DNA from: a virus
Length of the DNA stretch: 64,000 nucleotides
Virus record (IMG/VR): IMGVR_UViG_3300045976_000088
Span: 33,605-97,604 of that record
Strand: one strand, 5' to 3'
Shown: one piece after another, positions 1,981 through 62,263 of the stretch
How positions within the stretch are numbered: position 1 is the first letter of the stretch
Layout: each line of letters begins with the position of its first letter
Translations under genes and position numbers: made by a program
Notes under the pieces: model-generated
Seen by the model: the letters and a program-made list of their open reading frames with translations, nothing else
The model's database searches: none
What the model was told of the DNA's origin: nothing

Positions 1981-2001
1981 TCGTGACGCCACGATCACTG
2001 C
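1981..2001 (+). promoter_or_regulatory. TCGTGA-box promoter, leaderless type
   Basis: TCGTGA-cgc-CACGAT-cactgc-ATG(2002). Confidence 0.7.
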
Positions 2002-2355
2002 ATGGCTACATGCTGGCAGATCGTCACGAGGGCCCTGCACGAGCTTGGCGGCAGCGCCACGGCCGCGCAGGTGGAGCTGCACATCGGCGGCGCGTTCTAC
2101 GCGGCGCGCGGGCTGGAAAGCGCGGCGAAGCACGGCCTCGTGAAGTGCTCCGGCAAGGGTGCTGCAGTGCCGTGGGTGCTCACGCAAAAGGGCATCGACT
2201 GGAGCGAGGGCCGGCTGACGACGGCAGAGCAGCGCCGCTATCCAGGTCGCGAGAGCCCGCAGTTCATCGGCATGCGCTTCGTTCCGACCTGGCTGTCGGC
2301 GCTGCCGCGCGGGATTCGTATCACCCAACCCGAACCGGAGGCCGCGCCGTGCTGA
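2002..2355 (+). CDS. Hypothetical protein, winged-helix-like
   Basis: ORF beginning exactly at the motif-defined ATG; wHTH-like pattern. Confidence 0.6.
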   Translation: MATCWQIVTRALHELGGSATAAQVELHIGGAFYAARGLESAAKHGLVKCSGKGAAVPWVLTQKGIDWSEGRLTTAEQRRYPGRESPQFIGMRFVPTWLSALPRGIRITQPEPEAAPC

Positions 2356-2449
2356 ACGCCGCTTTCCTCACCTGGTGCGCATGGTGGCACGCCTACACCG
2401 GCAACTTCGAGGCCGCCGCGCGCTGCGTGGCCGCAGCATGGGAGGCGCC

Positions 2450-2794
2450 GTGCGCTCCTGGTTCCGCAACCTGATCCGTTCCTGGGTGGCCGGCCCCGAG
2501 CTGTCGGAGCTCGCACGCTGGCGCATCGCGCACGCCCACGTGCACGGAGGCCTGAGCGAGTTCCCGCAGAGCGCCGCCGCGCTGCAGTTCCTCGACGACC
2601 TGGTGGCCGGCCGCTCGCGCTACGGCGACCTGAACGCGCTGCGCGCCCAGCTGCGCGAGCTGCAGCCGGTGACGCCGATCGCGCCCGCCGGCTACCGGCC
2701 GCCCGAGCCGCCGAGGCGCCGGCGCGAGGACTACCTGGACGGCGACAGCATCCCCTACCAGTACCTCGTCGGAGCGTGCGGCGATGAGCGCTGA
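2450..2794 (+). CDS. Hypothetical protein
   Basis: GGAGG SD before GTG 2450; overlaps the next start. Confidence 0.5.
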   Translation: MRSWFRNLIRSWVAGPELSELARWRIAHAHVHGGLSEFPQSAAALQFLDDLVAGRSRYGDLNALRAQLRELQPVTPIAPAGYRPPEPPRRRREDYLDGDSIPYQYLVGACGDER

Positions 2795-3329
2795 TCGCGA
2801 GGATCTTGAGGCCGAACTGCTAGACGCCTACGAGGCGCCGCCGGACGGCCCGCTGCACCCCGCCACCGTCGCGCACCGCGTGATGCAGCTGGACGAGCAC
2901 AAGCACCTGGTCGAGAACGAGATCCGGTTTCTGTTCCTGCTGCGCTACACGCCCGACAAGCAGGGCGGCCGCGAGGTGATCGGCCGCGTGAGCGAGCCGC
3001 AGGTGCAGGGCCGCATGCGCGAGCTGTTCGAGCACCTGATCGTCAAGGCCTACGGCTTCCTGCCCGACTACATCGTCACGATCAGCGCGGACTTCTGGCG
3101 CGAGGCGACCGACCTGCAGCGCGAGGCGCTGATGCACCACGAGCTTAGCCACGTGCAGCAGGCGCTCGACCGCGATGGCGAGCCGCGTTTCAACACGCAG
3201 ACCGGCGAGCCGATCTATTGCCTGGTGGCGCACGACATCGAGGAGTTCAACAAGACGGTCGAGCGCTACGGACTGTGGAAGGATGACGTGCGGCAGTTCG
3301 CCGAGACCTGCGCGAGGGTCGAGCGGTGA
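2784..3329 (+). CDS. Putative phage metallopeptidase
   Basis: HELSH (HExxH) motif followed by HDIEEF...YGLW. Confidence 0.75.
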   Translation: MSADREDLEAELLDAYEAPPDGPLHPATVAHRVMQLDEHKHLVENEIRFLFLLRYTPDKQGGREVIGRVSEPQVQGRMRELFEHLIVKAYGFLPDYIVTISADFWREATDLQREALMHHELSHVQQALDRDGEPRFNTQTGEPIYCLVAHDIEEFNKTVERYGLWKDDVRQFAETCARVER

Positions 3330-3679
3330 GCACGCAGCCCGGAACCGGCCTGGCCCGCTTCGCCGAGGTGGTGGCGCTGCTGGTGAAGCAGCCTCGCACC
3401 ATCACCGAGCTGTCGGAGGCGATGGGCCAGGACAAGCCGAACGATCAGCCGGCCCGCTACATCAACGCGCTGCGCGCCGAGGGCCTGCTGTACGTGAAGG
3501 AGTGGCGGCAGCAGCTCAATGGTCGCGGCAAGCCGTGGCCCGTCTACGCCTGGCAGCCCAGCGTGCTGGAGCTGCCCGACGCGCCGCGGCCGGAGTGCAC
3601 GCCGCGCCCGCCGAAGGTCGGCAAGCGCGAGCTCGCGCGCCAGCGGCGCGAGGCCGCGTCATGCACGACGCCCGCCTGA
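3326..3679 (+). CDS. Winged-helix DNA-binding protein
   Basis: PRTITELSEAMG...YINALRAEGLLYV; GTGA coupling with the upstream gene. Confidence 0.6.
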   Translation: MSTQPGTGLARFAEVVALLVKQPRTITELSEAMGQDKPNDQPARYINALRAEGLLYVKEWRQQLNGRGKPWPVYAWQPSVLELPDAPRPECTPRPPKVGKRELARQRREAASCTTPA

Positions 3680-3786
3680 AGTGCTGCCGCTGCGGCGGCA
3701 CCGGCCACCTGTCGAAGGACTGCCGCATCCCGCTGCTGCCCGTGAAGAATTTGCCGACGCCCGCGCACAAGCCGGCGAAATCATGA
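3661..3786 (+). CDS. Small CCHC zinc-knuckle protein (41 aa)
   Basis: C-CR-C-GGTG-H-LSKD-C matches CX2CX4HX4C; ATG at 3661. Confidence 0.5.
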   Translation: MHDARLKCCRCGGTGHLSKDCRIPLLPVKNLPTPAHKPAKS

Positions 3787-3837
3787 TCAAATTCGAGTAA
3801 CGCGCGCCGGGCGCATCCCGGCATCATTGGAGAAATC

Positions 3838-7033: not shown

Positions 7034-7373
7034 CAGCCCTTGGACCCTGATCATCGACGGCCACGAGTACCAAGGCTCGATCACCGAGCTGCAGGTGACG
7101 CTTCCGATCGTTTCCACCTACACGCCAATGACTGGCTGCTCGGCGACGCTGGAGATGAAGGCCGCCCGGTGGAACGTCAAGAACTGCCGCAAGCTGTGGC
7201 CGGGTCCGCCTGGCGGTAAGCGGGCTCGTCGCGCCAGGTTTTACGCGAGGCAGCGCAAGTTGCGTTGGCTCGCGCGGCAGGTCAGGCAGGACTTGGAGCG
7301 GTTCTATGGTCGCCCGCTCACGCCGGAGTTGCGCGACGAGGTGATCGAGCAGGTCTACCACTCGCTCCGCTGA
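7026..7373 (+). CDS. Hypothetical protein
   Basis: Overlap-coupled ORF. Confidence 0.5.
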   Translation: MDNSPWTLIIDGHEYQGSITELQVTLPIVSTYTPMTGCSATLEMKAARWNVKNCRKLWPGPPGGKRARRARFYARQRKLRWLARQVRQDLERFYGRPLTPELRDEVIEQVYHSLR

Positions 7374-7810
7374 TGCTCTGCCCCATCTGCGGCCGCCCGA
7401 CGCGCCTGCTGCGCACCGAGCCGCTGGAGGTGGGCGCAGTGCGCCACGTGCGCCTGTGCACGATCCCGACCGCGCTGGCGCACCCTCACGTCGAGTTCGA
7501 GACCGTTGAGGTGCTGGCCGCCACGCTGAGCGGCATGGGCGCGACCGCGTTGGCGCGCGAGCTGCACCGCGCGCGCAAGGGGCTGCGGCGCCGCGTCGAG
7601 ACCGAGACCATCCGGCGAAAGACGCTGAAGCTGCTGGCCGCCGGCAAGCGCACGGCGCACGTGGCGCGCGCGGTCGGCATAACCGAGGCCCGTGTTCGTC
7701 AAATTCGAGCAGAAGCGGCCGCTGTGACGGTATCCTCCGCGCATGGTGAACCCGAACCCCAAAGCGAAACCGGACCTGAAGCACGGCAACAGCCACCCGC
7801 TGCGCGCTGA
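7373..7810 (+). CDS. Zn-ribbon (Ogr/NrdR-like) plus HTH putative transcription regulator
   Basis: MLCPICG...RHVRLC...FETVE N-terminus; C-terminal TAHVARAVGITEARVRQIR HTH; TGATG coupling. Confidence 0.6.
   Translation: MLCPICGRPTRLLRTEPLEVGAVRHVRLCTIPTALAHPHVEFETVEVLAATLSGMGATALARELHRARKGLRRRVETETIRRKTLKLLAAGKRTAHVARAVGITEARVRQIRAEAAAVTVSSAHGEPEPQSETGPEARQQPPAAR
7722..7742 (+). promoter_or_regulatory. TCGTGA-box variant promoter, leaderless type (terS-terL)
   Basis: CTGTGA-cgg-TATCCT-ccgcgc-ATG(7743). Confidence 0.6.
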
Positions 7811-8418: not shown

Positions 8419-10491
8419 ATGGGCGGACCCACGAGCGGCCGCTGGCGCGCCAACAAGGCGAGCGTGAACGACTGGGAGTCGGGCCTGGGCGCTGCGATCG
8501 CCGCCCTGGAGGCAAAGACCGGCTTCGTGGTGACCGAGCGCCGCAAGGTGATCGAGCCAGGCACCACGTTCCGCGAATGGGTCGAGCAGCTGGCCGCCGA
8601 TGGCCTCAAGGTCGACGGCAAGCCGTTCACACTAGAGGACCGACCAGCGATGGCGTGGGTCTACGACCAGATCCCGAGCACCGAGGATGAAGCTTTCCGC
8701 CTGTGCCTGGTGATGATGAAGTGCGCGCAGGTCGGCTTCACGGTGTTCGAGATGCTGGCCGCGATCTACCTTGGTCTGCGCTTCGGGCCGGCCACCGTCG
8801 GCATGTTCCTGCCCGACATGAACCTGGCCGGCGTGAAGTCGACCGAGCGGTTCATGCCGATCGTGCGCAGCGTGCCAGAGGTGCACAGCCTGATGACACA
8901 AGACGCGGCCGACGGCTCTGGCCGCAAGGTAGGCGAGGGCAACGTCAACCGCCGGCGCATCGATCAGGCGCTGTTCATCTTCAGCTGGACCAGCGGCAAG
9001 GCCACCACCGAGTCGATCCCGATGGACGTGCTGTCCTTCGACGAGGTGCAGGAGATGACGCTGGAGCAGATCGAAAAGACGTACGAGCGCTTGAGCGCGT
9101 CGTCGATCCGCTTCATGCAGATGGGCAGCACTGCCAACTGGCCCGACCTGGACATCCACTGGTGGTACAAGAAGGGCAGCCAGCACCGCTTCTACACGCG
9201 CTGCACGACATGCGGCAGCGAGAAGCCGCTGGATGACTACTTCCCGGAGTGCATCAAGTACGACCCCGAGCGCCGCGCGCACCGCTACGTTTGCCCAAGC
9301 GGCCATTGGATCGACGACACGCAGCAAGGTGAGTGGCGCGCCGACAACCCGGAAGCCGACCCGCCGATCGACACCACGATCCCGAAGAAGGACCGGCCGC
9401 GGCGCATCCGCTCGCTGCACTTCCCGCAGTTCCTCTCGCCGACGATCAGCGCCGGCGAAATCCTCGACGCCTACAACACGGCCGAGGACATGAAGAACTT
9501 CTACAACCGGAAGCTCGGCAAGCCCTACCTCGATCCGTCGCAGATTCCGGTGACCATGGAGCACTGCCGCGCCGCCGAAGCCGCCGGCATCGCGCTGGGG
9601 CTGCAGTGGAAGCAGCGAGCGCGCGGCACATTCATGGGCATCGACCAGATGGGCCGCTACAACGTGGTGGTGATCAAGGAACGGCTGCCCGATGGGCGCC
9701 AGGCGACGATCCACGTCGAGGAGGTCTACAGCAAGGAGCCGTTCAAGCGCTGCGACGAGCTCATGGAGCAGTACGGCGTGCAGTGCTGCGTGCTGGAGCA
9801 GAACCCGAACTACAACGACGCGCACAACTTCGCCAACCGCCACCCTGGCAAGGTCTTCCTGTGCAACAGCTTCGGCGAGGTGAAAGAGGGCATGATCGTG
9901 TGGGGCGACGCGCCGAAGCTCGACGCCAGCGACCGCCGCACCAGCGACGAGGCGCGCGACCGCTACACGCTGCGCATGGACCAGTACAAGTGCATGCAGG
10001 TCTCGATGATGCGCATCGTCAAAGGCCTATGCCTGTTCCCCGACAGCAAGGCGCTGGTGCAGGAGGTGATGCACGAGGGCCGCATGCAGCTGATGCCGGT
10101 TCTGCCGCGCGCCTGGTACCACTTCACGAAGACCGCCCTGGTGGCCGAGCTCGACGAGGAGAAGGGCACCAACAAGTACAAGCGCTGCGTGCGCAAGGTC
10201 GGCATAGATCCGCACTTCAGCTACGCCAACATGCTCTGCGACGTGGCCTGGGCACGCGCGCACGGCACCAGCACTTTCATCCTGCCGGGAGACGATGTGA
10301 TCGAGAAAGACGCGATGCTGAAGAACCCGATCATCCCCGAGCAGCTGAAGCAGCTGGTGCGGCAGGAGATCCCCGCGGGCGACGTGTGCGGGCGCTGCAG
10401 CGCGCGCGACCCCGAAACCGGCCGGTGCGATGAACGCGGCTTCCTGGTGAAGCCCGAGCAGCCTGGGTGCGTGCTATTCGTGGCGTCGTGA
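8419..10491 (+). CDS. terL: Terminase large subunit, GpA-like
   Basis: MKCAQVGFT (GpA-type Walker A), FDEVQ (Walker B), a Zn motif, FYNRKLGKPY and a GIDQ nuclease motif. Confidence 0.9.
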   Translation: MGGPTSGRWRANKASVNDWESGLGAAIAALEAKTGFVVTERRKVIEPGTTFREWVEQLAADGLKVDGKPFTLEDRPAMAWVYDQIPSTEDEAFRLCLVMMKCAQVGFTVFEMLAAIYLGLRFGPATVGMFLPDMNLAGVKSTERFMPIVRSVPEVHSLMTQDAADGSGRKVGEGNVNRRRIDQALFIFSWTSGKATTESIPMDVLSFDEVQEMTLEQIEKTYERLSASSIRFMQMGSTANWPDLDIHWWYKKGSQHRFYTRCTTCGSEKPLDDYFPECIKYDPERRAHRYVCPSGHWIDDTQQGEWRADNPEADPPIDTTIPKKDRPRRIRSLHFPQFLSPTISAGEILDAYNTAEDMKNFYNRKLGKPYLDPSQIPVTMEHCRAAEAAGIALGLQWKQRARGTFMGIDQMGRYNVVVIKERLPDGRQATIHVEEVYSKEPFKRCDELMEQYGVQCCVLEQNPNYNDAHNFANRHPGKVFLCNSFGEVKEGMIVWGDAPKLDASDRRTSDEARDRYTLRMDQYKCMQVSMMRIVKGLCLFPDSKALVQEVMHEGRMQLMPVLPRAWYHFTKTALVAELDEEKGTNKYKRCVRKVGIDPHFSYANMLCDVAWARAHGTSTFILPGDDVIEKDAMLKNPIIPEQLKQLVRQEIPAGDVCGRCSARDPETGRCDERGFLVKPEQPGCVLFVAS

Positions 10492-10500
10492 CGTGACGAT
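10486..10500 (+). promoter_or_regulatory. TCGTGA-box promoter overlapping the terL stop
   Basis: TCGTGA-cgt-GACGAT. Confidence 0.55.
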
Positions 10501-10588
10501 GAAGGCTCTTGGACGGAAAGCCTAGACCAACCTCACCAGCCAGGAGATCGACGATGAAACGCTGACGCGCCCAACCCGCGCCCGACGA

Positions 10589-10631
10589 GTAGCCCCGGCA
10601 TCGCAACTGCGCGCCGGGGCTACGCTTTTTT
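10589..10631 (+). terminator. Rho-independent terminator
   Basis: GTAGCCCCGGC/GCCGGGGCTAC stem followed by T6. Confidence 0.85.
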
Positions 10632-10653
10632 GAGCGGCGCGACAGATTAAGGA

Positions 10654-10887
10654 TCAGGCAGGCGCAGGCTCCGGCAGTTCGTAGCGGCCGCTGTCGCGCG
10701 GGAACAGGTGCACCAGCACCCAGTCGCTCGGCTTGCGCGACGGGTCATGCAGGTCGGCGTCATACACGACCCAGCGACCTGGCGGTATTCGGTAGAGCTC
10801 GGCCAGGCGCGACGCGCCGATGTGGTGGTATTGGCCGTCGTGCTGCGATCGCACGCAGCCCGGGTGAAGGACGTACATCGTTTCCAT
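10654..10887 (-). CDS. Hypothetical protein
   Basis: 77-aa ORF filling the intergenic gap. Confidence 0.55.
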   Translation of the reverse strand: METMYVLHPGCVRSQHDGQYHHIGASRLAELYRIPPGRWVVYDADLHDPSRKPSDWVLVHLFPRDSGRYELPEPAPA

Positions 10888-10982
10888 AGCTGCCCCTATG
10901 ACGTGGGTGATTGTCTCACCCGGCCGCTGAACGCTACCCGCCCGGGTTAGGGGGAAGACGTAACAGCGGGCGCAGCGCGAGG

Positions 10983-10997
10983 TCGTGAGCGAAGACT
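10983..10997 (+). promoter_or_regulatory. TCGTGA-box promoter, short-leader type
   Basis: TCGTGA-gcg-AAGACT; GGAG SD and ATG 11022 downstream. Confidence 0.65.
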
Positions 10998-13218: not shown

Positions 13219-14597
13219 GCTGATTGCTCCTTGGCGGCAGCAGCGAGGGCGGCCGCGTACCCGGCGCGGATGAAGTCATAGGCCGCGGCTCCCCGCTTCT
13301 CGTGCATGGTCTTGGTCATAATCTCGTCGCACTGCTCATCCGTCAGTCCCTGCGCCACTGGCTGTGATGCGACGACGGGAGCGGCGATGGATCGACGGAT
13401 GGCTTGCAGCGCTAGCCGGTCGTTGCTCAAGCCGAGAATCTTGATGGTCTCCCACAAGCGCTTCGCTTCCAGCTCCACCGTCTCTGCTGCCCCCTGCACG
13501 GGAGCGAGGTTGCATCGGATGAACTCTGCGACTTGTGGAGCGATCAAAACCGGCTCGCGTCCTTCAGCCGCTTCGATGCGATCTGCGCAGTCGAGTAAGT
13601 AGTCTGCTGTTGGCTTCGGGACGGGCACCAGCACGAACCCATCTGCCGCCACCGGCTCGGCCTGCGCGGGGGTAGTGGTGGGCGTCGTCAGGTATGCGGC
13701 CAGGGCCTTCTCGGCATCGTGGATGACACGGTATCCATGCGTCCCGTCGTCCTGCGCGTTGACCAGCTTGCCGAGGTGGCCGGGATCGCGGCTCGGCACG
13801 GCATCACAGATCGCGCTGGCGAGGTGCAGGGCGTTCATCACTTGCCACAGCAGCGCCACCGGCTCGGCCTGCGGGGTGGCGTCATTGACCATCGGGCCGT
13901 CCCATCCCGGCTCACGTCGCGCAGCCGGTGCAGGGGACGCCACGGGAGGGCGGACGGCGAGGGATGCCGCGCTCTTAAGCCACGCATTCACTGCGCGCCG
14001 GGCAATGTTGGTCATGTTCCCCCGGTAAGCGCGAGCCGCCTCGATGCTGGACAGCTCGTTGTAGCTCGGGTCACGCATGGCCGCGTGGACGGCAGCCGCA
14101 GCGTGATTAAGGGCCGCAGGGTAGTCATCGGCCGCCACCGGCTCGGCCTGCGGCTGCCTGTCGGGATCGTCGCGTTCGCCGGCAATCCAGTCGATCGCCT
14201 TTGCGAGCGCCGCGCCGACGGTGGTGTGATGCGTGTCGGCTTCTAGCCTCGCATCCTCCAACTCATCAAGCAAATCGGCACGCGCCGCTTCCTCGCACGG
14301 GTGAGGCTCGGCCTGCGGCTTCCCAAGCGGCGGCTTCCACTGCTCCCCCTCGTGGTACGTGTAGCCCAGGCCCTGCAGCGTCTTGACGGCAGCGTCGCGC
14401 GCGGCTCGGCTTGGATTCTCGGACTGCAGCTGTGCGGAGATCGCTTCACGCGCATACTCCTGCACGCACATCTGCAGCGCCGCCGCGATGTCCTGGCGCC
14501 CCATTACGCTCGGGTGCGCAGCACTCCATTCGTTCACAAGGCTCCAAAATTTCTTCTGAAGGGATGGCAGTGGCGCGATATTGGTGTTCTCAGCCAC
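13215..14597 (-). CDS. Modular hypothetical protein with QAEPVA linker repeats
   Basis: Long ORF (track 13215..14663; GTG 14597 chosen for coupling to the upstream gene); repeated [P/A]QAEPVA. Confidence 0.65.
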   Translation of the reverse strand: MAENTNIAPLPSLQKKFWSLVNEWSAAHPSVMGRQDIAAALQMCVQEYAREAISAQLQSENPSRAARDAAVKTLQGLGYTYHEGEQWKPPLGKPQAEPHPCEEAARADLLDELEDARLEADTHHTTVGAALAKAIDWIAGERDDPDRQPQAEPVAADDYPAALNHAAAAVHAAMRDPSYNELSSIEAARAYRGNMTNIARRAVNAWLKSAASLAVRPPVASPAPAARREPGWDGPMVNDATPQAEPVALLWQVMNALHLASAICDAVPSRDPGHLGKLVNAQDDGTHGYRVIHDAEKALAAYLTTPTTTPAQAEPVAADGFVLVPVPKPTADYLLDCADRIEAAEGREPVLIAPQVAEFIRCNLAPVQGAAETVELEAKRLWETIKILGLSNDRLALQAIRRSIAAPVVASQPVAQGLTDEQCDEIMTKTMHEKRGAAAYDFIRAGYAAALAAAAKEQSA

Positions 14598-14859: not shown

Positions 14860-14889
14860 ATTGTACGCCAGCTAATCAAAAAAGATCAA
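14860..14889 (-). promoter_or_regulatory. Sigma70-like promoter for the leftward operon, overlapping an ATCAAA..GAT operator
   Basis: TTGATC-N18-TACAAT on the minus strand. Confidence 0.55.
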
Positions 14890-14914
14890 ATCAGCGCCCG
14901 CGCTGCTCCGGCTG

Positions 14915-14935
14915 TCGTGACGACACCATGGCGAC
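14915..14935 (+). promoter_or_regulatory. TCGTGA-box promoter, leaderless type (portal)
   Basis: TCGTGA-cga-CACCAT-ggcgac-ATG(14936). Confidence 0.7.
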
Positions 14936-16693
14936 ATGGACAATGCCGCCTCCGTTGCCTTCAATCCAGACGCGCCTGCCGACGAGCGCCGCGACGCCAA
15001 AGCGGAGCTGCAGAAGGCGCATGCCCCAACGTCATCCGACATCGCCAAGAACGTCGGTAACCTGGCGCCCCTGATCGACTTCATCCGGCATCAGGCCGAG
15101 GAACAGGAGTTCCAGAAGTCGCTCACCAAGCAAAACGTGATCCCATTCCCGTCGCTGGCGGTCAAAAACCGCAAGCCCGGCATGCAGTCGGTCACGCTCG
15201 ACGACATGCTGGTGACGGTGCAAGGAGACTGGTACGAGCGCCCTGGCTCGATGCCGTTCGACTCTCTGCGCATGATGGTGCGCGAGACACCGGTGCTTGG
15301 CGCCGTGATCATGCAGCGCATCCGCCAGGTGCAACGCTTCTGCCGTCCGCAGGAGAACGGCAAGGGCTACGGCTTCAAGATCGCGCTGAAGGACAAGACG
15401 GCGCACACCGGCCCCGAGGAGGAGCAGTCCATCGCGCTGCTGCAGGACTTCTTCAGCAACTGCGGCTGGGAGAAGAACCCGCGCGCGCGCCGGCGCCTGA
15501 AGCGCGACGACTTCACGTCGTTCATGGGCAAGCTGGTGCGGGAGTCGCTGACCCTGGACTCGATGCCGATCGAGACGGAGTTCAAGCGCGATCGCAGCCA
15601 GGGCATCGACGGCATGTATGCGGTCGACGGCGCGACGGTGCGGCTGTGCACTGAGCTCGGCTATGAGGGCGACGACGAGATTTACGCCCTGCAGGTGGTG
15701 CAGGGCCAGGTGCGAGCGGTCTACACCTATGACGATCTGATCTACGTCCCACGCAACCCGCTGGCGGACGTGAACGCCGGCGGCTACGGCCTGAGCGAGA
15801 CCGAGTTGCTGGTGCGTACGGTGACGGGCTTCCTGAACGCCTTCACCTACAACACCAAGTTCTTCGACTCGAATCAGATCCCGAAGGGCCTGCTGCACCT
15901 GTCTGGCAACTACGACGACAACGACATCACCGCGTTCAAGCGCTTCTGGAACGCGATGGTCAAGGGCATCAACAATGCCTGGTCGCTGCCGGTGATGGTA
16001 TCGAAGGACCAGGAGTCGAAGGCCACGTTCGAGAACTTCGGTGTCGAGGTCAACGAGATCATGTTCGCGAAGTGGATGGTGTTCCTCGTGAGCATCATCT
16101 GCGCGATCTACGGTATCGCACCCGAGGAGATCAACTTCGAGAGCTTCACGGCCGGCACGAGCTCGCTGAGCGGCGACGACACCGAGGAGAAGCTGGTCTC
16201 GTCGAAGGACAAGGGCCTGCGGCCGCTGTTGAGCTACTTCGAGAACCTGTTCACCGACTACGTGGTCTCGGAGTACGGCGACAAGTACGTGTTCCGCTGG
16301 ACCGGCCTCGACGAGGAGGATCCGAAGTCGGCAGCCGAGCGCCAGAAGCTGTCGATGACGTGGAACGAGATGCGTGCACTCGACGACCTGCCGAAGATCC
16401 CTGGCAAGGTCGGCGACGCGCCGCTCAACCCCGCCCTGCTCGGCGCCTGGCAGCAAGAGAACATGCCGCAGGAGACCGACTTCGGCCAGCCCGGGCAGCA
16501 GCAGCCGCCAGGCGACGACGAGGGTGCGTCAGCCGAGGGCCAGGACTTTGGCAACCCGGGCGACGAGAACGACACCGGCGCCGACTTCGGCCAGGCCGGC
16601 GGCGACGACAGCCAGGGCGGCGGCGACGAGCCTGCCGACAGCGCCACGATGGCGAAGGCCTTCGGCCTGCCGGTGTTCAAAATCGAGCCGTGA
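14936..16693 (+). CDS. Portal protein
   Basis: YAVDGATVR, YVPRNP....GYGLSETE, FFDSNQIPKGLL, ICAIYGIAPEEI and KGLRPLL motifs; acidic tail. Confidence 0.88.
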   Translation: MDNAASVAFNPDAPADERRDAKAELQKAHAPTSSDIAKNVGNLAPLIDFIRHQAEEQEFQKSLTKQNVIPFPSLAVKNRKPGMQSVTLDDMLVTVQGDWYERPGSMPFDSLRMMVRETPVLGAVIMQRIRQVQRFCRPQENGKGYGFKIALKDKTAHTGPEEEQSIALLQDFFSNCGWEKNPRARRRLKRDDFTSFMGKLVRESLTLDSMPIETEFKRDRSQGIDGMYAVDGATVRLCTELGYEGDDEIYALQVVQGQVRAVYTYDDLIYVPRNPLADVNAGGYGLSETELLVRTVTGFLNAFTYNTKFFDSNQIPKGLLHLSGNYDDNDITAFKRFWNAMVKGINNAWSLPVMVSKDQESKATFENFGVEVNEIMFAKWMVFLVSIICAIYGIAPEEINFESFTAGTSSLSGDDTEEKLVSSKDKGLRPLLSYFENLFTDYVVSEYGDKYVFRWTGLDEEDPKSAAERQKLSMTWNEMRALDDLPKIPGKVGDAPLNPALLGAWQQENMPQETDFGQPGQQQPPGDDEGASAEGQDFGNPGDENDTGADFGQAGGDDSQGGGDEPADSATMAKAFGLPVFKIEP

Positions 16694-18288
16694 TGAAGCC
16701 ACAGCAGCAGAAGCAGCAGCCCGAGAAGGAGCCCAAGGACGTCGCCGTCGGCGACGAGCTCTACGTGCATCACGGCGGCCAGCCGCACACGTGCCGCGTG
16801 GTCGCGCACGGCCGCCACGGCGTCACGGGCGAGATCGAGGGCAAGCACCACAAGTTCACCTGGGACCGGGTGCTCGGGCACAAGAAGCGCGCGAAGCTGC
16901 GCTACCGCATCACCGACCAGGGCGAGGACGGCATGATCCTGGAGGATCACGCCGGCAACCGCCGCTACCTGGCGACCCCCAACGAGGCAAAAGAGGATCC
17001 CTACGTGGCGAAGGCACTCGACCCGCGGCGCCCGGTGCTGCTGCTCAAGGCTGGCGAACCGAAAGGGCCGACGCGCCCGGGGTTGACCGAAAAGCACCTG
17101 ACCGACAAGCGCGGCGTGCAGACCACGCGCTACGTGCGCACACAGAAGGACCAGCCGAAGCAGCGCCAGCGCGCCGCCAGCGATGCCGAGGCTGGCGCCG
17201 CGCACGGCTACGGCACACACAACCTGAGCGCCGGCGACACCGTGCACTTCGCCGCCGGCGACTTCCAGGGCAGCGGCGTCATCGTCGGCGAGCCCGGCGC
17301 CGACGGCGCGCACGTCAAGGACGCCAGTGGCCGCGTGCACCAGGTGAGGTGGGCCGAGATCACCGGCCACGAGCCGCGCGAGGGCGAGAAGCCGACCGTG
17401 CAGCACGGTGTGCGCGGCGAGCAGAAGCCGATCCCAGCGGACCAGTTCAAGGCGGGCGACTACGCGGCGCAGCACAACGACCCCAACGTGACGCCCGAGG
17501 CGATCCTGTCGCAGTTCCCGCCCGACACAGCCGAGAAGATCCAGGCGGTGCAGGAGCGTCTGAAGTCAGTCGAAGAAACGATCGAGCGGCACAAGCAAGG
17601 CGACGACTACGACGAGAAGCGCAAGGCGCTGCACGTGAAAATCTACGATCACTTCCTCTCGCCGGAGAAGGTGATCGCGGCGACGCCGCCCGAGGGTCAG
17701 AAGCCAACGCTGACGCTGCTGGGTGGCCGCGGCGGCTCGGGCAAGAGCTCGTTCAAGGGCAAGGTCTACGACGAGGCGCATGCGATCGTCATCGACCCGG
17801 ACGAGATCAAGGGCATGCTGCCCGAGTACGAGGGATGGAACGCCCACCAGGTGCACTCAGAGTCGAGCGACATCACCGACGAGATCATCAAGATGGCCCG
17901 CGACTTCGGCTGCAACGTGGTGCTCGATGCCACGATGAAGACCGCCAAGAGCACACTCAAGAAGCTCGACGAGTTCAAAGGCGCCGGCTACCGTGTCGAG
18001 GCCCACTACATGCACCTGCCGCGGCAGGAAGCAGCCAAGCGCGCCGTGCAGCGCTTCCTTGGCAAGACGCAGCGCTACGTGCCGGTCGACGTCGTGCTGG
18101 GCAACACCGAGAACGAGAAGACGTTCGATCAGGTGCGCGAGCACGCCGACCGCTGGTCGTTCCGGGACAACAACGTGCAGCAGGGCCAGGAGCCGATCTT
18201 GATCAGCCAGGGCGGCAAGGATCACGAGGAGCAGCCATTGAAGAAGTCCCTCGGAGCAACTATCCTCTTGGTATGGAAAATGCCATGA
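16693..18288 (+). CDS. Multidomain protein with C-terminal zeta-toxin-like P-loop kinase
   Basis: LLGGRGGSGKSS, IDPDEIKGMLP, VVLDATM and AAKRAVQRF; TGATG coupling to portal. Confidence 0.8.
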   Translation: MKPQQQKQQPEKEPKDVAVGDELYVHHGGQPHTCRVVAHGRHGVTGEIEGKHHKFTWDRVLGHKKRAKLRYRITDQGEDGMILEDHAGNRRYLATPNEAKEDPYVAKALDPRRPVLLLKAGEPKGPTRPGLTEKHLTDKRGVQTTRYVRTQKDQPKQRQRAASDAEAGAAHGYGTHNLSAGDTVHFAAGDFQGSGVIVGEPGADGAHVKDASGRVHQVRWAEITGHEPREGEKPTVQHGVRGEQKPIPADQFKAGDYAAQHNDPNVTPEAILSQFPPDTAEKIQAVQERLKSVEETIERHKQGDDYDEKRKALHVKIYDHFLSPEKVIAATPPEGQKPTLTLLGGRGGSGKSSFKGKVYDEAHAIVIDPDEIKGMLPEYEGWNAHQVHSESSDITDEIIKMARDFGCNVVLDATMKTAKSTLKKLDEFKGAGYRVEAHYMHLPRQEAAKRAVQRFLGKTQRYVPVDVVLGNTENEKTFDQVREHADRWSFRDNNVQQGQEPILISQGGKDHEEQPLKKSLGATILLVWKMP

Positions 18289-18517: not shown

Positions 18518-18594
18518 AGCGGTGTAGCTCAGCCAGGTAGAGCAGCGGGTTCATACCCCGCGGGTCGCAGGATCGAAGCCTGCCACCGCAACCA
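18518..18594 (+). tRNA. tRNA-Met(CAT), initiator-like
   Basis: Cloverleaf: GCGGTG/CACCGC acceptor with 1:72 mismatch, GCTC/GAGC D-stem, GCGGG-TTCATAC-CCCGC anticodon arm, GCAGG/CCTGC T-stem, encoded CCA. Confidence 0.9.
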
Positions 18595-19475: not shown

Positions 19476-19490
19476 TCGTGACGCTACTCT
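19476..19490 (+). promoter_or_regulatory. TCGTGA-box promoter, short-leader type
   Basis: TCGTGA-cgc-TACTCT; GGAG SD and ATG 19516 downstream. Confidence 0.7.
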
Positions 19491-20336: not shown

Positions 20337-20599
20337 CACCTTCACAGAAGCGGCGTCAGGGTCTGGATGGGTACGGCGCTGCACCTGCATGCCAGGCCCG
20401 CTTCTGTGAGGGTGAATGCGCAGGCTGATGCGCGAATCGTGAGAGCAAGATCCCTTCCGGTATAGCCTCGTAGGAGGTGTCGTTAGCGGTGCGGTAGGGC
20501 TCACTGGCCCGCTCGTAAGAGCCTACCAGTGGGGATGTAAAACGAGGCGTCACTACACGCCTATTGCCTCAAAGCCGGAGATCAGCACCGGCCGCCCTC
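20337..20599 (+). ncRNA. Putative structured RNA with a kissing-loop
   Basis: 17-bp stem 20337-20353/20398-20414; GAGGGTG/CGCCCTC closure; complementary loops GGCTGA and AGATCAGCA. Confidence 0.6.
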
Positions 20600-20613
20600 A
20601 ACTCAAAAATGAG

Positions 20614-20634
20614 TCGTGATGCCCCAATCGGGGC
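20614..20634 (+). promoter_or_regulatory. TCGTGA-box promoter, leaderless type
   Basis: TCGTGA-tgc-CCCAAT-cggggc-ATG(20635); lacks the -11 A. Confidence 0.6.
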
Positions 20635-21330
20635 ATGGAACTCCTCAAGCACTTCGACCGCAACACCGCGGGCCGCGACCTGATCGTCGGCGACGTCCAT
20701 GGTTGCTTCACCAAGCTGCAGGCCGCGCTCGACGCGCTGAAATTCGACCCCGCGCGCGATCGCCTGTTCTCCGTCGGTGACCTGGTGGACCGCGGCCAGG
20801 AATCCGACGACGCCACCGAGTGGCTGGCGAAGCCATGGTTCCACGCGGTGCGCGGCAATCACGAGCAGATGGCGATCGACTTCGCGGCCGGCTTCGGCGA
20901 CCCGCGCCTCTACATGATGAACGGCGGCGCCTGGTTCATCGGCCACCCGAAGTCGCACCAGCAGTGGATGGCCGACCAGTTCGCCGCGCTGCCGATCGCG
21001 ATCGAGGTCGAAACCGAGCACGGCCTGGTCGGCATCGTGCACGCCGAGTGCCCGACGATCCGCTGGCAAGACCTGCGCGATGCGCTGACGGGCCCGGCAT
21101 CCGACGGCTTCCAGCAGCTGTGCATGTGGTCGCGCGACCGTATCACGGGCGAGCTCGTCGATCACACCGAGGGCGTCAGCGCGGTGATCGTCGGCCACAC
21201 GCCGGTAGAGCGCTGGATCACGCTGGGGAACACGATCTACATCGACAGCGGCGCGTGGCTGCCTCCGCACCGCGGGGATCGTCCGTTCACCATCCTCGAC
21301 GCCGCCACGCTGCGCCCTGCGCAGTCGTGA
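20635..21330 (+). CDS. Ser/Thr protein phosphatase (lambda NinI/PphA-like metallophosphoesterase)
   Basis: GDVHG, GDLVDRG, RGNHE, GHTP and IDSG motifs. Confidence 0.92.
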   Translation: MELLKHFDRNTAGRDLIVGDVHGCFTKLQAALDALKFDPARDRLFSVGDLVDRGQESDDATEWLAKPWFHAVRGNHEQMAIDFAAGFGDPRLYMMNGGAWFIGHPKSHQQWMADQFAALPIAIEVETEHGLVGIVHAECPTIRWQDLRDALTGPASDGFQQLCMWSRDRITGELVDHTEGVSAVIVGHTPVERWITLGNTIYIDSGAWLPPHRGDRPFTILDAATLRPAQS

Positions 21331-21518
21331 TTGCACACTCACACTGCCTGCAAAGGCGTCCGCAAGGGCGACGATGGCCGGGTGCTTCCCCCCTAGCTGT
21401 GCGTGGGGGCGTGGGTTTCTCAACGGCAGCAGCAGATCACGGCGACCCACTCCGTGGGGCCCCTCCACGCTGGGGATCTGCCGGCATTGCGCGGCCCGGG
21501 GCGACTCGGGCCGCCGTG

Positions 21519-21540
21519 TCGTGACTGCATTCTTGCGGGC
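21519..21540 (+). promoter_or_regulatory. TCGTGA-box promoter, (near-)leaderless type
   Basis: TCGTGA-ctg-CATTCT-tgcgggc-ATG(21541). Confidence 0.65.
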
Positions 21541-24413: not shown

Positions 24414-24428
24414 TCGTGACGTCATGAT
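24414..24428 (+). promoter_or_regulatory. TCGTGA-box promoter, short-leader type
   Basis: TCGTGA-cgt-CATGAT; ATG 24458 downstream. Confidence 0.65.
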
Positions 24429-31174: not shown

Positions 31175-31203
31175 GGGGCCGCCTTCGGGCGGCTCCGTTC
31201 TTT
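31175..31203 (+). terminator. Rho-independent terminator
   Basis: GGGGCCGCC-TTCG-GGCGGCTCC followed by a T-rich tail. Confidence 0.7.
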
Positions 31204-31208: not shown

Positions 31209-31229
31209 TCGTGAGGCGATCATGCTGGC
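31209..31229 (+). promoter_or_regulatory. TCGTGA-box promoter, leaderless type
   Basis: TCGTGA-ggc-GATCAT-gctggc-ATG(31230). Confidence 0.7.
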
Positions 31230-36066: not shown

Positions 36067-36090
36067 GGCCGCTTTCGAGCGGCCTTTTTT
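36067..36090 (+). terminator. Rho-independent terminator
   Basis: GGCCGCT-TTCG-AGCGGCC followed by T6. Confidence 0.88.
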
Positions 36091-36116: not shown

Positions 36117-36137
36117 TCGTGACGCCAGACTCGGCTC
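36117..36137 (+). promoter_or_regulatory. TCGTGA-box promoter, leaderless type (head operon)
   Basis: TCGTGA-cgc-CAGACT-cggctc-ATG(36138). Confidence 0.72.
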
Positions 36138-39994: not shown

Positions 39995-40009
39995 TCGTGA
40001 CTTCATAGT
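39995..40009 (+). promoter_or_regulatory. TCGTGA-box promoter, leadered type
   Basis: TCGTGA-ctt-CATAGT directly after the terminator; AAGGA SD and ATG 40072. Confidence 0.68.
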
Positions 40010-46099: not shown

Positions 46100-46956
46100 C
46101 CGCCGCGCTTGATCGCTTCGGTGAAGGCCTGCTCGGCGAGCGGCCGCATCTCGTTGGAGATGTTCTCGGCGATGTGTAGGCCGGGCTGCGCAGGAACGAT
46201 CCAGCCCGAAGATCCTTCCATCATCGTGCGGAAGGTCATGTAGGTCGAATATCGCTTGCCGCCAGGCGTGCGGCTGTCGAAGCGCACCATGCCGGCGTAG
46301 CGATCGGTCTTGCCATGCGGGTTGGGTCCGAGCATGGCAGCCGGCAGCCGGCCGCCCCACTGGTACTGCTGCCGCGGCACCATGTAGTGCTGCCGCGTGT
46401 GGATGCTCGACGCGAACGGCCGCTGCTGCGCGGCCGCGCGCATGCCGAACTTGGGGCTGAGCTCGGTCACCTCGCCGCTCGGCCGGAAGCTGCCCGCTGG
46501 CGTCGTCACCTTGCTGGCAGAGAGCTGTGAAGCGGCGTCGTAAATCTGCTGCGGCATCGCCGGACCGAGCGCATCGTTGCCTGGGGTGTTGTGGCGAAAC
46601 GGGATCACCAGGAACCGGCGCCCGTCCTTGGTGGTGCGCACCTTCAGCGAGGTGTCGAGCATCTTCTTCAGGTCGCGCGCCGGGCGGCCGCTCTCGATCT
46701 CGCTGGCGTACTTGTAGTCGCTGAAGACGAGCCAGGCGAACGGCCCCGTCTGCTGCAGCTGAATCGATTCCATGTAGGCGGTCTTCTCGCCGCTCCAGAG
46801 CTTGGCCCGGTAGACGGCCTCCATCCAACGGACCTGTGTTTGCTGCGCGACGGCGCGCACCGCCTGCGCCAGCCTGGGCAGCACTTGCTCGTTGACTGCC
46901 GACGTGGCGCTATCCAGCACCACGTTCAGGTCGATTGAGATCCGAAACTCAGCCAT
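46096..46956 (-). CDS. Probable neck/tail-completion protein, inverted relative to neighbours
   Basis: YASEIESG..DLKKML...FLVIPFRH; has its own leaderless promoter. Confidence 0.6.
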   Translation of the reverse strand: MAEFRISIDLNVVLDSATSAVNEQVLPRLAQAVRAVAQQTQVRWMEAVYRAKLWSGEKTAYMESIQLQQTGPFAWLVFSDYKYASEIESGRPARDLKKMLDTSLKVRTTKDGRRFLVIPFRHNTPGNDALGPAMPQQIYDAASQLSASKVTTPAGSFRPSGEVTELSPKFGMRAAAQQRPFASSIHTRQHYMVPRQQYQWGGRLPAAMLGPNPHGKTDRYAGMVRFDSRTPGGKRYSTYMTFRTMMEGSSGWIVPAQPGLHIAENISNEMRPLAEQAFTEAIKRGG

Positions 46957-47005
46957 GCCAGCAGGTTAGCGTCACGCGCCGGTGTCGTGACGCAACACTC
47001 GGAGC
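46957..47005. promoter_or_regulatory. Back-to-back divergent TCGTGA-box promoters, both leaderless
   Basis: Minus strand: GCGTGA-cgc-TAACCT-gctggc-ATG(46956). Plus strand: TCGTGA-cgc-AACACT-cggagc-ATG(47006). Confidence 0.75.
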
Positions 47006-50649: not shown

Positions 50650-50875
50650 TCACCACGAGAGCTACGAGTTCGCTTTCCGTCGCCGCTACAACCTGCCCCC
50701 GACCGATCCGCGTTACTTGAACGCCACTCGTGACCAGATCATCGAGGACTACTGGCTGCACTACTACGCCAGCAACGGCATCAAGGACGAGATCGAGGAC
50801 GAGAGCTTTGACCTGGAAGAAACCCTGGCTCGCATGGAGCAGGGAGACGACTGGGAGGACATAGTTCGTGGCTGA
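50606..50875 (+). CDS. Tail assembly chaperone C-terminal extension (probable +1 frameshift product)
   Basis: Overlapping +1 frame encoding FRRRYNLPPTDPRYL; TCC-TTT-CGA at 50602-50610. Confidence 0.6.
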   Translation, partial: FDREMERQAKKRARDHHESYEFAFRRRYNLPPTDPRYLNATRDQIIEDYWLHYYASNGIKDEIEDESFDLEETLARMEQGDDWEDIVRG

Positions 50876-55728: not shown

Positions 55729-55749
55729 TCGTGACGGCACCATGCCGTC
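55729..55749 (+). promoter_or_regulatory. TCGTGA-box promoter, leaderless type
   Basis: TCGTGA-cgg-CACCAT-gccgtc-ATG(55750). Confidence 0.7.
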
Positions 55750-58683: not shown

Positions 58684-59618
58684 AGCTGACCACCACGCTC
58701 ATCGGGTACCTGAATCGGGTCTTCAAGAAAGACCCTGAGCAGGTGCTGGCGCTGCGCCTCAACTACGACGGCGCGATGACTTGGACGGTGGCCGATGGCG
58801 TGCTCACCACCAGCGTGACGGGCGGCAGCGGCACGCCGTTGCAGGTGAATCTGAGCAACTACACGATCTCCTCGCTGTGCGCTTACCTGGCGCAGCAGCA
58901 GGGCTACACGGTCCCTTACCAGGACACATCTTCTCTCGCATCGCGCTCGGCCATGGTGTTGCTCGACGGAAGCGGCGACCAGGGCGCGTCGAACGGAGAT
59001 CACATCTACGGGTACACCTCGGTTCTGTGGACCTACATGGATGCGATCGCCAACGAGCTCACGCTGATCGGCTTGGCGATCCAGGAGGGCCTGCTGCAGA
59101 TGGCGGCGTCGACCGCGGAAGGCGAGTGGGTGGATTTCCATGGCGACTACTACAACGTGCAGCGCAACCAGGGCGAGCTCGATGCGGCCTACGCGGCGCG
59201 CATCGTTGCGGAGGTGGTGCGCGCGCGCGGCAACAACGTCTCGATCGCTGAAGCGATCCGTGTTGCTGTGCAGGCCGACTCGACTCGTGTCGACGACGTG
59301 ACCACCTACACGACGGCCGCCAACGGCACGAAAAGTTATGGCCTGTTCGATGTCACGGTGGAATCGACCGTGGACGTGCCGATGGGTTCAACAGAGGATT
59401 CTGTCGTCCGCAACCTCATCGAGGTGATGCGCGATTCTGGCACCCATCTTCGGCAGCTCAAGTACGTCCGCAAGAACTCGCTCTACACCTACCCTGCGGC
59501 CGTGCTGAAGACCGGCATGAACGTCAACATCCCGAACAGCAACGCGCTGCTCTACGACGGCTCCTGGGTCTTCAACGGGTCGCAGTATTTCAACGGCGTG
59601 ATCAACTACCCGCCGTGA
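58680..59618 (+). CDS. Baseplate wedge protein (gpI-like)
   Basis: TAEGEWVDFHG.YY.V.R..GE.D..Y..RI motif. Confidence 0.7.
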   Translation: MKLTTTLIGYLNRVFKKDPEQVLALRLNYDGAMTWTVADGVLTTSVTGGSGTPLQVNLSNYTISSLCAYLAQQQGYTVPYQDTSSLASRSAMVLLDGSGDQGASNGDHIYGYTSVLWTYMDAIANELTLIGLAIQEGLLQMAASTAEGEWVDFHGDYYNVQRNQGELDAAYAARIVAEVVRARGNNVSIAEAIRVAVQADSTRVDDVTTYTTAANGTKSYGLFDVTVESTVDVPMGSTEDSVVRNLIEVMRDSGTHLRQLKYVRKNSLYTYPAAVLKTGMNVNIPNSNALLYDGSWVFNGSQYFNGVINYPP

Positions 59619-59627
59619 TGCAACCAT
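59613..59627 (+). promoter_or_regulatory. TCGTGA-box variant promoter (tail fibre)
   Basis: CCGTGA-tgc-AACCAT overlapping the upstream stop; ATG 59651. Confidence 0.55.
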
Positions 59628-61195: not shown

Positions 61196-61197
61196 TC

Positions 61198-61497
61198 ATG
61201 ATCGTCTATCAAACCGACCGCGACGGCTGGTATGTCGGCACCATCACTGCCGACGAAAGCCCGCTTGAACCTGGCGTGTACCTGATCCCAGCGGGCGCCT
61301 ACGCAGACCCGCCACCGGATCAACCGTGGCCGCCTGGCACGACACCACGTCGCACCGGCGACCGCTGGTCCATGCAGTACAACGGGCGCCCGACCGGCGC
61401 CACGCCGGTGCAGAAGCTGGCCGAGTTCCTGGCGGCCAACCCTGACGTTGCCGCGCTCATCAACAACAAGCAGGGCGCAAGCCCGGGAGGTGTATGA
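61198..61497 (+). CDS. Tail fibre assembly-like protein
   Basis: VYQTD..G.YVG...ADESPLEPGVYLIPAGA motif. Confidence 0.7.
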   Translation: MIVYQTDRDGWYVGTITADESPLEPGVYLIPAGAYADPPPDQPWPPGTTPRRTGDRWSMQYNGRPTGATPVQKLAEFLAANPDVAALINNKQGASPGGV

Positions 61498-62198
61498 ATC
61501 TGCTCGACTTCATGGTTGGGATGACCGGTGTTGTGCTGCCATTCGCCGGCAGCAGCCCACCATCTGGATGGCTTCTCTGCAACGGCCAGCAGGTCAGCCG
61601 CACGACTTACCCCGAACTCTTTGCGGCGATCGGCACCACGTTCGGTGTCGGTGATGGCAGCACGACGTTCAACGTGCCCGATCTGCGCGGCCGCGTCGCC
61701 GCAGGCAAAGACGACATGGGCGGCACGGCCGCCAACGTGCTCCAGGTCTCGACGACGATTACCACGACGGCTGGCAGCGCTACAGCGACCGTCGGCAGCG
61801 CCTCCGGCTTGGCGATCGGAATGTCGGTCAAGGCGTCGACTGTGCCCGCCGGCGTGACGATCTCCGACATCAACGGAACGACTGTCACGCTATCGACCGG
61901 CACCGGTGTGACCGCGGGCACGTCGACAGCGGCCCGCTTTTCCAGCGTGGGGGATGCGCAGTCGCTCGGGTCTTCCGGCGGAACGCAGGCGCACACGATG
62001 GTGACGAAGCAGATGCCGGCTCACAACCACACGTTCGCCAGCGGATCGCAAACGATGGTGCTCGCAAACGGCCCTGGTGCTGGCGTCGCCGCGGGGGCTG
62101 CGAGCGGTCAATACCAAACCATGGACAACACGGGCGGCGGACAGCCGCACCCGAACGTGCAGCCGACCATGGTGCTGAACCACATCATCAAGACTTAG
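61494..62198 (+). CDS. Tail-collar-domain protein
   Basis: GWLLCNGQ.VSRTTY..LFAAIGT...PDLRGR and HPNVQPT..LNHIIK motifs. Confidence 0.82.
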   Translation: MNLLDFMVGMTGVVLPFAGSSPPSGWLLCNGQQVSRTTYPELFAAIGTTFGVGDGSTTFNVPDLRGRVAAGKDDMGGTAANVLQVSTTITTTAGSATATVGSASGLAIGMSVKASTVPAGVTISDINGTTVTLSTGTGVTAGTSTAARFSSVGDAQSLGSSGGTQAHTMVTKQMPAHNHTFASGSQTMVLANGPGAGVAAGAASGQYQTMDNTGGGQPHPNVQPTMVLNHIIKT

Positions 62199-62219
62199 GG
62201 GTTGACCCACCCCGCTGAG

Positions 62220-62245
62220 CAGCCCCGGATTTCCGGGGCTTTTTT
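62220..62245 (+). terminator. Rho-independent terminator
   Basis: AGCCCCGG-ATTT-CCGGGGCT followed by a T run. Confidence 0.88.
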
Positions 62246-62248
62246 GTG

Positions 62249-62263
62249 TCGTGACGTGACACT
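62249..62263 (+). promoter_or_regulatory. TCGTGA-box promoter (lysis operon)
   Basis: TCGTGA-cgt-GACACT directly after the terminator; ATG 62290. Confidence 0.7.

Follow-up and report, generated by a model that had tools for sequence, protein, structure and literature searches.

A dispersed TCGTGA element as a probable phage-specific late promoter lacking a -35 box

Genes and elements of the window

The stretch of DNA analysed in this work (the window; 64,000 nt) comprised bases 33605-97604 of a single 97,604-bp virus record (IMGVR_UViG_3300045976_000088), which had a G+C content of 66% and was rated as complete by CheckV. Packaging, head, tail, baseplate, fibre and lysis genes were encoded in the window, together with a DarB-like methyltransferase of 2096 amino acids (aa), a Ulx-like protein and a 1513-aa helicase. 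A short composite element, TCGTGA-N3-nAnnnT, was dispersed among these genes. TCGTGA is called the “box” below; it is followed by a -10-like hexamer, and positions are numbered by setting the hexamer T as -7. The closest cultured relatives were myoviruses of ~86-96 kb: Bordetella phage PHB04, Pseudomonas phages Dolphis, Jeremy and Touem01, Aeromonas phage ST4, Yersinia phage fHe-Yen8-01, Escherichia phage ECML-606-1, Enterobacter phage phiT5282EW and Morganella phage Mecenats66. Family comparisons were made with eight phages including this one, of which seven were rich in boxes and one (Mecenats66) was poor. A wider set consisted of 58 bacterial loci from alpha-, beta- and gamma-proteobacteria encoding protein A (listed below) at 29-59% identity, and the consensus matrix was built from 57 sites in four phages.

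The elements of the window, their variants and the features related to them were the following (promoter roles, leaders and leaderless starts are predictions).

305..820, + strand: protein A, 171 aa, basic and cysteine-rich, candidate reader of the box; in 8/8 family phages and 58 bacterial loci
825..1163, + strand: protein B, 112-aa zinc-ribbon protein, candidate partner of A; adjoins A in 34/58 loci and is fused to it in ~10
1981..1995, + strand: box and -10 hexamer of a leaderless-type 117-aa gene; ATG at 2002, 6 nt past the hexamer T
7722..7736, + strand: variant CTGTGA with TATCCT; leaderless-type ATG at 7743 of the 224-aa gene preceding the large terminase gene
10486..10500, + strand: box overlapping the large terminase stop codon (its TGA); followed by ~480 nt without a convincing open reading frame (ORF)
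10983..10997, + strand: putative promoter with a short leader; ATG at 11022, whose Shine-Dalgarno sequence (SD) would be occluded in read-through RNA
14915..14929, + strand: putative portal-gene promoter; leaderless-type ATG at 14936; box at the orthologous site in 7 phages
18518..18594, + strand: initiator-like tRNA-Met; unpaired 1:72 and three G:C pairs in the anticodon stem
19476..19490, + strand: putative promoter with a leader; ATG at 19516
20437..20451, + strand: exact intergenic copy absent from the earlier list; followed by ~180 nt of structured non-coding sequence
20614..20628, + strand: TCGTGA with CCCAAT, lacking A at -11; leaderless-type ATG at 20635 of a phosphoesterase gene
21325..21339, + strand: box overlapping the phosphoesterase stop codon (its TGA); exact composite match
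21519..21533, + strand: putative promoter of a conserved post-portal 383-aa gene; ATG at 21541, 7 nt past the T; leaderless-type orthologous sites in PHB04 and Dolphis
24414..24428, + strand: putative promoter of the 2096-aa DarB-like methyltransferase gene; leader to ATG at 24458
31209..31223, + strand: putative promoter of the 1513-aa helicase gene; leaderless-type ATG at 31230; terminator upstream (31175-31196)
36117..36131, + strand: putative promoter of the protease-scaffold-capsid operon; leaderless-type ATG at 36138; terminator upstream (36067-36084); TCGTGA kept in 8/8 phages
39995..40009, + strand: putative promoter behind a terminator hairpin (-27.4 kcal/mol); leader to ATG at 40072
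46963..46977, - strand: divergent variant GCGTGA with TAACCT; leaderless-type ATG of the 286-aa gene 46096-46956; GCGTGA, TAGTGA or TCGTGA in relatives
46985..46999, + strand: putative promoter of a tail-side 286-aa gene; leaderless-type ATG at 47006; kept in 8/8 phages
50728..50742, + strand: exact copy within a short conserved ORF, 140 nt ahead of the tape-measure gene; may be the single match expected by chance
55729..55743, + strand: putative baseplate-gene promoter; leaderless-type ATG at 55750
59613..59627, + strand: variant CCGTGA with AACCAT; precedes a 514-aa fibre gene, ATG at 59651
62249..62263, + strand: putative lysis-cassette promoter after a terminator; leader to ATG at 62290

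The 14 composite sites of the initial annotation were all recovered among 16 exact matches, and the two further copies were an intergenic one at 20437 and one at 50728, which fell within a small ORF (about one match was expected by chance). The variants it had described (CTGTGA at 7722, CCGTGA at 59613, the A-less TCGTGA at 20614 and the minus-strand GCGTGA starting at 46977) were found as reported, and the intragenic TCGTGA copies at 4671, 4912 and 38563 did lack the A/T pair of the hexamer.

Distribution and anatomy of the element

The composite element was strongly enriched: 16 copies were observed in the window versus 1.06 expected (maximum of 4 in shuffled sequences), all 16 on the + strand. 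The bare TCGTGA hexamer was not enriched in the window (41 copies vs. 39 expected), so that the signal sits in the composite. The A/T pair was present in 16 of the 26 + strand copies of TCGTGA and in none of the 15 minus-strand copies. The whole 97.6-kb genome harbored 18 composite copies, every one on the + strand; 17 of them were intergenic or straddled a stop codon, non-coding DNA amounting to 10% of the genome (binomial P ~1e-16). At two sites the TGA of the box was itself the stop codon of the upstream gene: 10489-10491 for the large terminase and 21328-21330 for the phosphoesterase. The comparison of intergenic DNA with shuffled controls proposed in the initial annotation thus gave a clear enrichment.

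The same was seen in the related phages. The eight genomes together contained 96 composite matches (~16.5 expected), with 18, 17, 14, 9, 12, 8, 16 and 2 exact matches per phage (1.5-3 expected in each), and reversed-pattern controls gave 0 matches. Among the seven box-rich phages, 88 of 94 copies were on one strand, the late one, and 82 of 94 were intergenic. A position weight matrix trained on the relatives alone returned, as the top 20 matches of this genome, + strand sites exclusively, 18 of them within the window. A de novo search for 6-mers enriched in the 60 nt upstream of called genes placed TCGTGA at or near the top in 7 of the 8 phages, beside SD words, so the unbiased motif search suggested by the initial annotation recovered the box as well. 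In the wider set, the element was found in 47 of the 58 loci encoding protein A, and these loci contained 100 boxes (leaderless copies included) versus 7 for the reversed pattern and ~21 in shuffles.

Conservation was also observed position by position. At orthologous promoters (those of the portal, the protease, the tail-side gene and its divergent neighbour, and the baseplate gene) the flanking sequences had diverged, and the box, the hexamer and often the ATG were retained. One conserved divergent promoter carried GCGTGA, TAGTGA or TCGTGA depending on the phage, which suggests that GTGA(Y) is the core of the box. The consensus spanned 16 bases, from -22 to -7: a G, the TCGTGA box (-21 to -16), Y at -15, G at -14 and the hexamer nAnAMT (-12 to -7). 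Several bases beyond the search pattern were conserved in the 57-site matrix: G-22 (45/57), Y-15 (51/57; C in 39 and T in 12), G-14 (34/57), A-9 (33/57) and A or C at -8 (54/57). TG at -15/-14 was common among lower-GC relatives. The region of the predicted start also showed preferences, with C at -1 in 33/57 sites, and A, T and G at +1, +2 and +3 in 29, 29 and 28 sites, respectively. Nothing was conserved upstream of -22 in this matrix, and on this ground the element has no -35 box, as the initial annotation had proposed. Neither half of the sigma-54 signature (GG at -24, GC at -12) appeared in the 57-site matrix, and no sigma-70 consensus promoters were found in the late region from 30 to 48 kb.

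Four boxes (31209, 36117, 39995 and 62249) had been described as following a terminator, and a stable hairpin with a U-run was folded at each of them, ending 5-15 nt before the box.

The computational checks proposed in the initial annotation all favoured a promoter. Taken as a whole, these data are best explained by a promoter class specific to this phage family, which probably drives a late, or middle-to-late, regulon. This regulon would include packaging, head, tail, baseplate, fibre, lysis and virion-cargo anti-restriction genes. The “late” label given to the element at first is roughly right, since boxes precede virion, lysis, packaging and virion-cargo genes, and a few non-structural genes as well. 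Full-text searches of the literature on TCGTGA phage promoters and on the related phages gave no description of this consensus, in line with the earlier remark that it was unfamiliar, and promoters were not mentioned in the Mecenats66 paper.

Several neighbouring features were recorded. Both large genes, 24458-31071 and 31230-35771, had a box promoter of their own, and the DarB-like methyltransferase, the Ulx-like protein and the helicase resembled the virion-cargo anti-restriction (Dar) genes of P1. The post-portal 532-aa protein (16690-18288) contained a zeta-toxin-like kinase domain (Pfam E = 5e-25). After three of the boxes, the stretches 10501-10982, 20452-20613 and 21340-21540 (160-480 nt) had no convincing ORF and formed stable folds; they may represent non-coding RNAs transcribed from the late promoter.

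Start codons, leaders and translation

The distance from the hexamer T to the called start codon was bimodal in the eight phages: 29 sites had a spacing of 5-7 nt, and most of the remaining ones a spacing of ~23-34 nt. The ATG was located 6-7 nt beyond the hexamer T in ~30-40% of the copies, and the complete composite GTGA-N4-A-N3-T-N6-ATG occurred 8 times in the window versus 0.19 expected. A transcription start predicted 7 nt past the hexamer T coincided, for about ten genes here, with the first base of the ATG, a point absent from the initial annotation. Such a spacing is the recognised signature of leaderless genes, and sRNA-seq confirmed it in the Thermus Lalka phages. A gene caller based on codon usage had independently chosen the ATGs at 2002, 7743, 14936, 20635, 21541, 31230, 36138, 47006 and 55750. 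At the leaderless-type genes the TGA of the box was in frame, 15 nt upstream of the ATG, which makes a longer ORF impossible. These genes had no SD and no room for one, and the leadered sites carried an SD of their own. We infer that ~30-40% of the box promoters would produce leaderless mRNA, the rest producing mRNA with short leaders of ~17-28 nt. Leaderless genes are rare in Proteobacteria.

The leadered sites showed a further property. For 39 leadered box promoters in seven phages, the unpaired fraction of the SD was 0.35 in the predicted read-through RNA and 0.54 in RNA starting at the box. This gain in accessibility was larger than at 666 control starts (0.19 vs. 0.10, p = 0.002), and a strong occlusion effect was present in 36% of the box sites versus 12% of the controls. 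The sites at 10983 and 24414 of the window fitted this pattern.

An action of the motif in RNA, as a processing site or as a substitute for the SD, has to be weighed at this point, and it was judged extremely improbable. The missing SD of leaderless-type genes speaks for it, as does part of the 3' tail of the 16S rRNA, which is complementary to GTGAY. The distances speak against it: the one to the start codon is bimodal, the one to the -10-like hexamer is fixed, and the box ends at least 15 nt before the ATG, too far for an SD. The presence of a separate SD at leadered sites and the position of some sites directly after terminators also count against it.

An Rfam scan of the window at the gathering thresholds had tRNA as its sole match. 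The tRNA-Met at 18518-18594 combined an A1xA72 mismatch with three G:C pairs closing the anticodon stem, both hallmarks of initiators, and the tRNA-Met of PHB04 (45118-45193; C1xA72 and a CUCAUAA loop) was a textbook initiator. Neither Dolphis nor ECML-606-1 encoded a tRNA-Met. The initiator-like tRNA-Met of these phages may support leaderless translation.

Candidate readers of the box and comparison with known systems

The following mechanism is proposed for the late promoter class. Region 2 of the host primary sigma would read A-11 and T-7, and G-14 would supply a partial extended -10 contact. The -22 to -14 box would take over the role of the -35 contact, being read by a phage specificity factor made from an ordinary early promoter. 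Transcription would begin 7 nt past the hexamer T, which at about ten genes is the A of the ATG. The leaderless set would then be translated from mRNA with neither leader nor SD, the leader of ~17-28 nt carrying the SD elsewhere; at about one third of the leadered sites, the SD would be paired in read-through RNA and free in RNA started at the box.

Known late regulators were searched for by six-frame profile searches of the whole genome. Lpa (PF25716) had no match, P1 Lpa scoring 193 bits as a control, and tblastn and phmmer searches in four phages were also negative. No matches were obtained for Ogr/Delta (PF04606), Mor/C (PF08765) or Q (PF06530), whose controls were positive; the T7-like RNA polymerase family (PF00940) had no match in the genome, and none in its positive control either. 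The large proteins scanned had other domains or none, or were homologs of the PHB04 methyltransferase, helicase or primase, and none was RNA-polymerase-like. An AraC/MarA-type double helix-turn-helix (HTH) protein of 166 aa was encoded at 23851-24351 on the minus strand, divergently from the downstream DarB-like gene, and was present in 5 of the 8 phages; it was discarded as the reader of the box, being absent from ECML-606-1, fHe-Yen8-01 and Mecenats66.

A highly divergent phage sigma, comparable to gp55 of T4, could instead replace the host sigma and read both box and hexamer. The two elements keep a constant spacing and a strict orientation, as would be expected with a sigma, and many early proteins had no family assignment. 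Sigma-70 region 2 was not detected in the six-frame searches, region 4 gave only a sub-threshold match, and the conserved early proteins A and B were predicted to be zinc- and beta-rich, not all-helical. The A-11/T-7 pattern that has been retained suits the host primary sigma, and a phage sigma appears quite improbable.

The small non-structural proteins common to 8/8 phages were A, B and the HTH protein C, the last encoded outside the window. Genes A and B were the first two of a rightward operon running into the late region, and their products were basic (pI 8.4-9.9). Protein A had >130 homologs, all unannotated, and was absent from four outgroups that lack the box (Cumys, Lalka27a, phiMa and P1). 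A and B were adjacent in 34 of the 58 loci, and A was fused to a B-like zinc ribbon in ~10, including some Pseudomonas and Methylobacterium prophages; protein C was encoded near A in only 2 of the 58. These associations are circumstantial evidence that A and B act as one unit which travels with the box. The zinc-protein pair A and B is put forward tentatively as the reader of the box, an assignment that is possible rather than probable.

Recognition by host RNA polymerase (RNAP) alone would make a box-binding protein unnecessary. In this case sigma region 3 and the beta-prime zipper would read a long extended -10 from -22 to -14, and a phage factor would only disable -35 recognition, as gp39 of phage P23-45 does. 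The frequent G-14, the TG at -15/-14 in many copies of lower-GC relatives, the extended -10 type of the P23-45 middle and late promoters (which escape gp39) and the lack of a recognised DNA-binding fold in A or B are compatible with this explanation. The TCGTGA part, however, lies upstream of the known extended -10 contact, C exceeds T at -15 (39 vs. 12), and 7-9 specific bases do not vary among the phages of alpha-, beta- and gamma-proteobacteria, a degree of conservation more typical of a dedicated reader. Reading by host RNAP alone was regarded as unlikely.

In three relatives gene A was preceded by a sigma-70-like TATACT and no box, as would fit a factor made from an early promoter. Autoregulation of the A operon through the box was unsupported in the eight-phage family, the sole GCGTGA variant, that of this phage, being 474 nt upstream of A. 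Boxes were found just upstream of gene A in distant prophages. Pseudomonas and Methylobacterium prophages with an A-B fusion had 3-4 CGTGACCACG-type repeats around a box upstream of the small gene preceding A (about 9430-9600 in five loci), and this cluster suggests autoregulation by a CGTGA-binding protein. The non-coding region of ~800 bp upstream of gene A in this phage (window positions 1-200 and the 230 nt before them; 13380-13800 of locus L012) contained about a dozen GGTTACC/GGTAACC repeats, an alternating purine-pyrimidine (GT/GC) run and ATGATG/TACTAC repeats; the array resembles a set of operators or iterons through which the A-B operon would be controlled. At 14870-14895, ~30 bp upstream of the portal box, lay an A/T-rich TGATC-W6-GATCA-type palindrome, and similar sequences were present at the orthologous sites of PHB04 and Dolphis.

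As a further alternative, the box might be a repressor operator overlapping weak promoters that consist of a -10 alone, like the dispersed C1 operators of P1. The sites are dispersed, ~9 bp long and partly palindromic (CGT-G-ACG), and CGTGACCACG repeats cluster in the regulatory regions of distant prophages. A repressor would not require the orientation and the hexamer spacing that are fixed at ~100 sites, the promoters would be left with no positive upstream element whatever, and the GGTTACC and TGATC-W6-GATCA families are better operator candidates. An operator role for the box was therefore considered highly improbable.

Other observations weigh against a late promoter class read by A and B. 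The boxes at 10486, 20437 and 21325 had no obvious gene downstream, and the one at 50728 was intragenic. Protein A, whose structural model was confident (predicted local distance difference test, pLDDT, 90.5), showed no fold that could be recognised as DNA-binding or RNAP-binding (best Z 2.6): no fold of the PDB was matched (Foldseek E at least 0.4; VIA Z at most 2.6), the BFVD match was a family member only, and a profile search of PDB sequences gave nothing other than chance matches to cytochrome c. In the ESM Atlas, A matched unnamed viral clusters alone, and B generic double zinc ribbons with scores below 0.9. The model of the A-B fusion (pLDDT 73) showed weak zinc-ribbon likeness only (Z at most 4.0), and a TFIIS/Elf1-type assignment of its C-terminal ribbon (Z 2.5-3.0) was too weak for use. 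Mecenats66 has retained A, B and C, yet has lost most of its boxes; its A is divergent, the boxes that it still has read TCGTGA, and no other motif was enriched in their place. The small HTH protein C, likewise present in 8/8 phages, is another possible reader, although it is not linked to A in the wider loci. Finally, the co-occurrence of A/B and the box lies within one evolutionary lineage and hence is not independent evidence.

The wider proposal is that A/B form a new late-transcription specificity factor acting on host RNAP, which would read the -22 to -14 box instead of a -35 element across a very large set of temperate phages infecting alpha-, beta- and gamma-proteobacteria, coupled to leaderless translation and, in some members, to an initiator tRNA of their own. 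It is slightly more doubtful than the assignment of A and B as readers.

A complete tRNA-Leu(CAA) gene (7267-7352 of locus L011) adjoined the integrase gene, and for this reason the phage is probably temperate, integrating at a tRNA-Leu gene. Several ~90-95-kb contigs of the A family in bacterial assemblies could be plasmid prophages.

If confirmed, the promoter class would define how late transcription is switched on in ~90-kb temperate phages and prophages that are widespread but have hardly been studied, with hosts including Bordetella, Pseudomonas, Aeromonas, Yersinia, E. coli, Paraburkholderia, Cupriavidus and Methylobacterium. It would also reveal a systematic use of leaderless mRNA by Proteobacteria phages, and correct many start-codon annotations, the leaderless ATGs being fixed by the in-frame TGA of the box. 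The two unannotated zinc proteins would represent a testable new way of redirecting host RNAP, and the compact 16-bp promoter could become a tool for high-GC Proteobacteria. Cultured family members exist on E. coli and P. putida.

The initial annotation had compared the element with the late promoters of P1, and the comparison was sound for the architecture only: the box is offset by 4 bp and no Lpa homolog was found. In the annotated P1 record, the late promoters (LPmat, LPpro, LPlyz, LPdar, LPs, LPsit and LPpac in P1) read AAGTGACTT-N4-TAnnnT. Both systems would use a -10 hexamer without a -35, preceded by a partly palindromic 9-bp box inside the spacer, in many copies before the morphogenesis, lysis and dar genes of a ~95-kb phage; both boxes have a GTGAC core, and DarB-like and Ulx-like genes are present in this phage family. 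The P1 box AAGTGACTT, centred near -22, is 4 bp from the hexamer, whereas the core of TCGTGAYG is 4 bp closer here and the outer bases differ. P1 late genes are leadered, in contrast to the ~30-40% of leaderless-type copies in this family. Lpa-dependent late promoters of P1 require host SspA as a co-activator (PMC1891329). The element described here would work like a P1 late promoter but is not a member of that system.

Phages of Thermus would be similar in that host RNAP is redirected to promoters without a -35, with many dedicated late promoters that include divergent pairs. The starts of the Lalka phages were mapped by sRNA-seq 6 nt after the -10, most of their transcripts are leaderless and a dedicated class of late promoters is present; the late promoter of Lalka27a is TAGGGT with C at -25, and P23-45 combines extended -10 promoters with gp39. 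The Lalka portal is a distant homolog of the portal of this phage. The Thermus phages have another consensus and no TCGTGA box, Lalka27a, phiMa and Cumys do not encode protein A, and the hosts belong to Deinococcota instead of Proteobacteria.

T4 late promoters are another class without a -35, whose reading is assisted by the phage proteins gp55, gp33 and gp45. Their sole element is TATAAATA at -10, and the phage sigma is tethered to the sliding clamp. The absence of a -35 is common to both systems, and phage-encoded proteins aid the reading in T4; here an upstream box is combined with a weak -10 (nAnAMT), and no sigma was detected.

The leaderless promoters of Actinobacteria, Deinococcus-Thermus and archaea share with the leaderless-type copies of the element a TANNNT-type -10 located 6-7 nt before the start codon and the lack of an SD. 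Here, by contrast, the arrangement occurs in phages of Proteobacteria, appears bound to one promoter class, and is accompanied in two family members by an initiator tRNA of their own.

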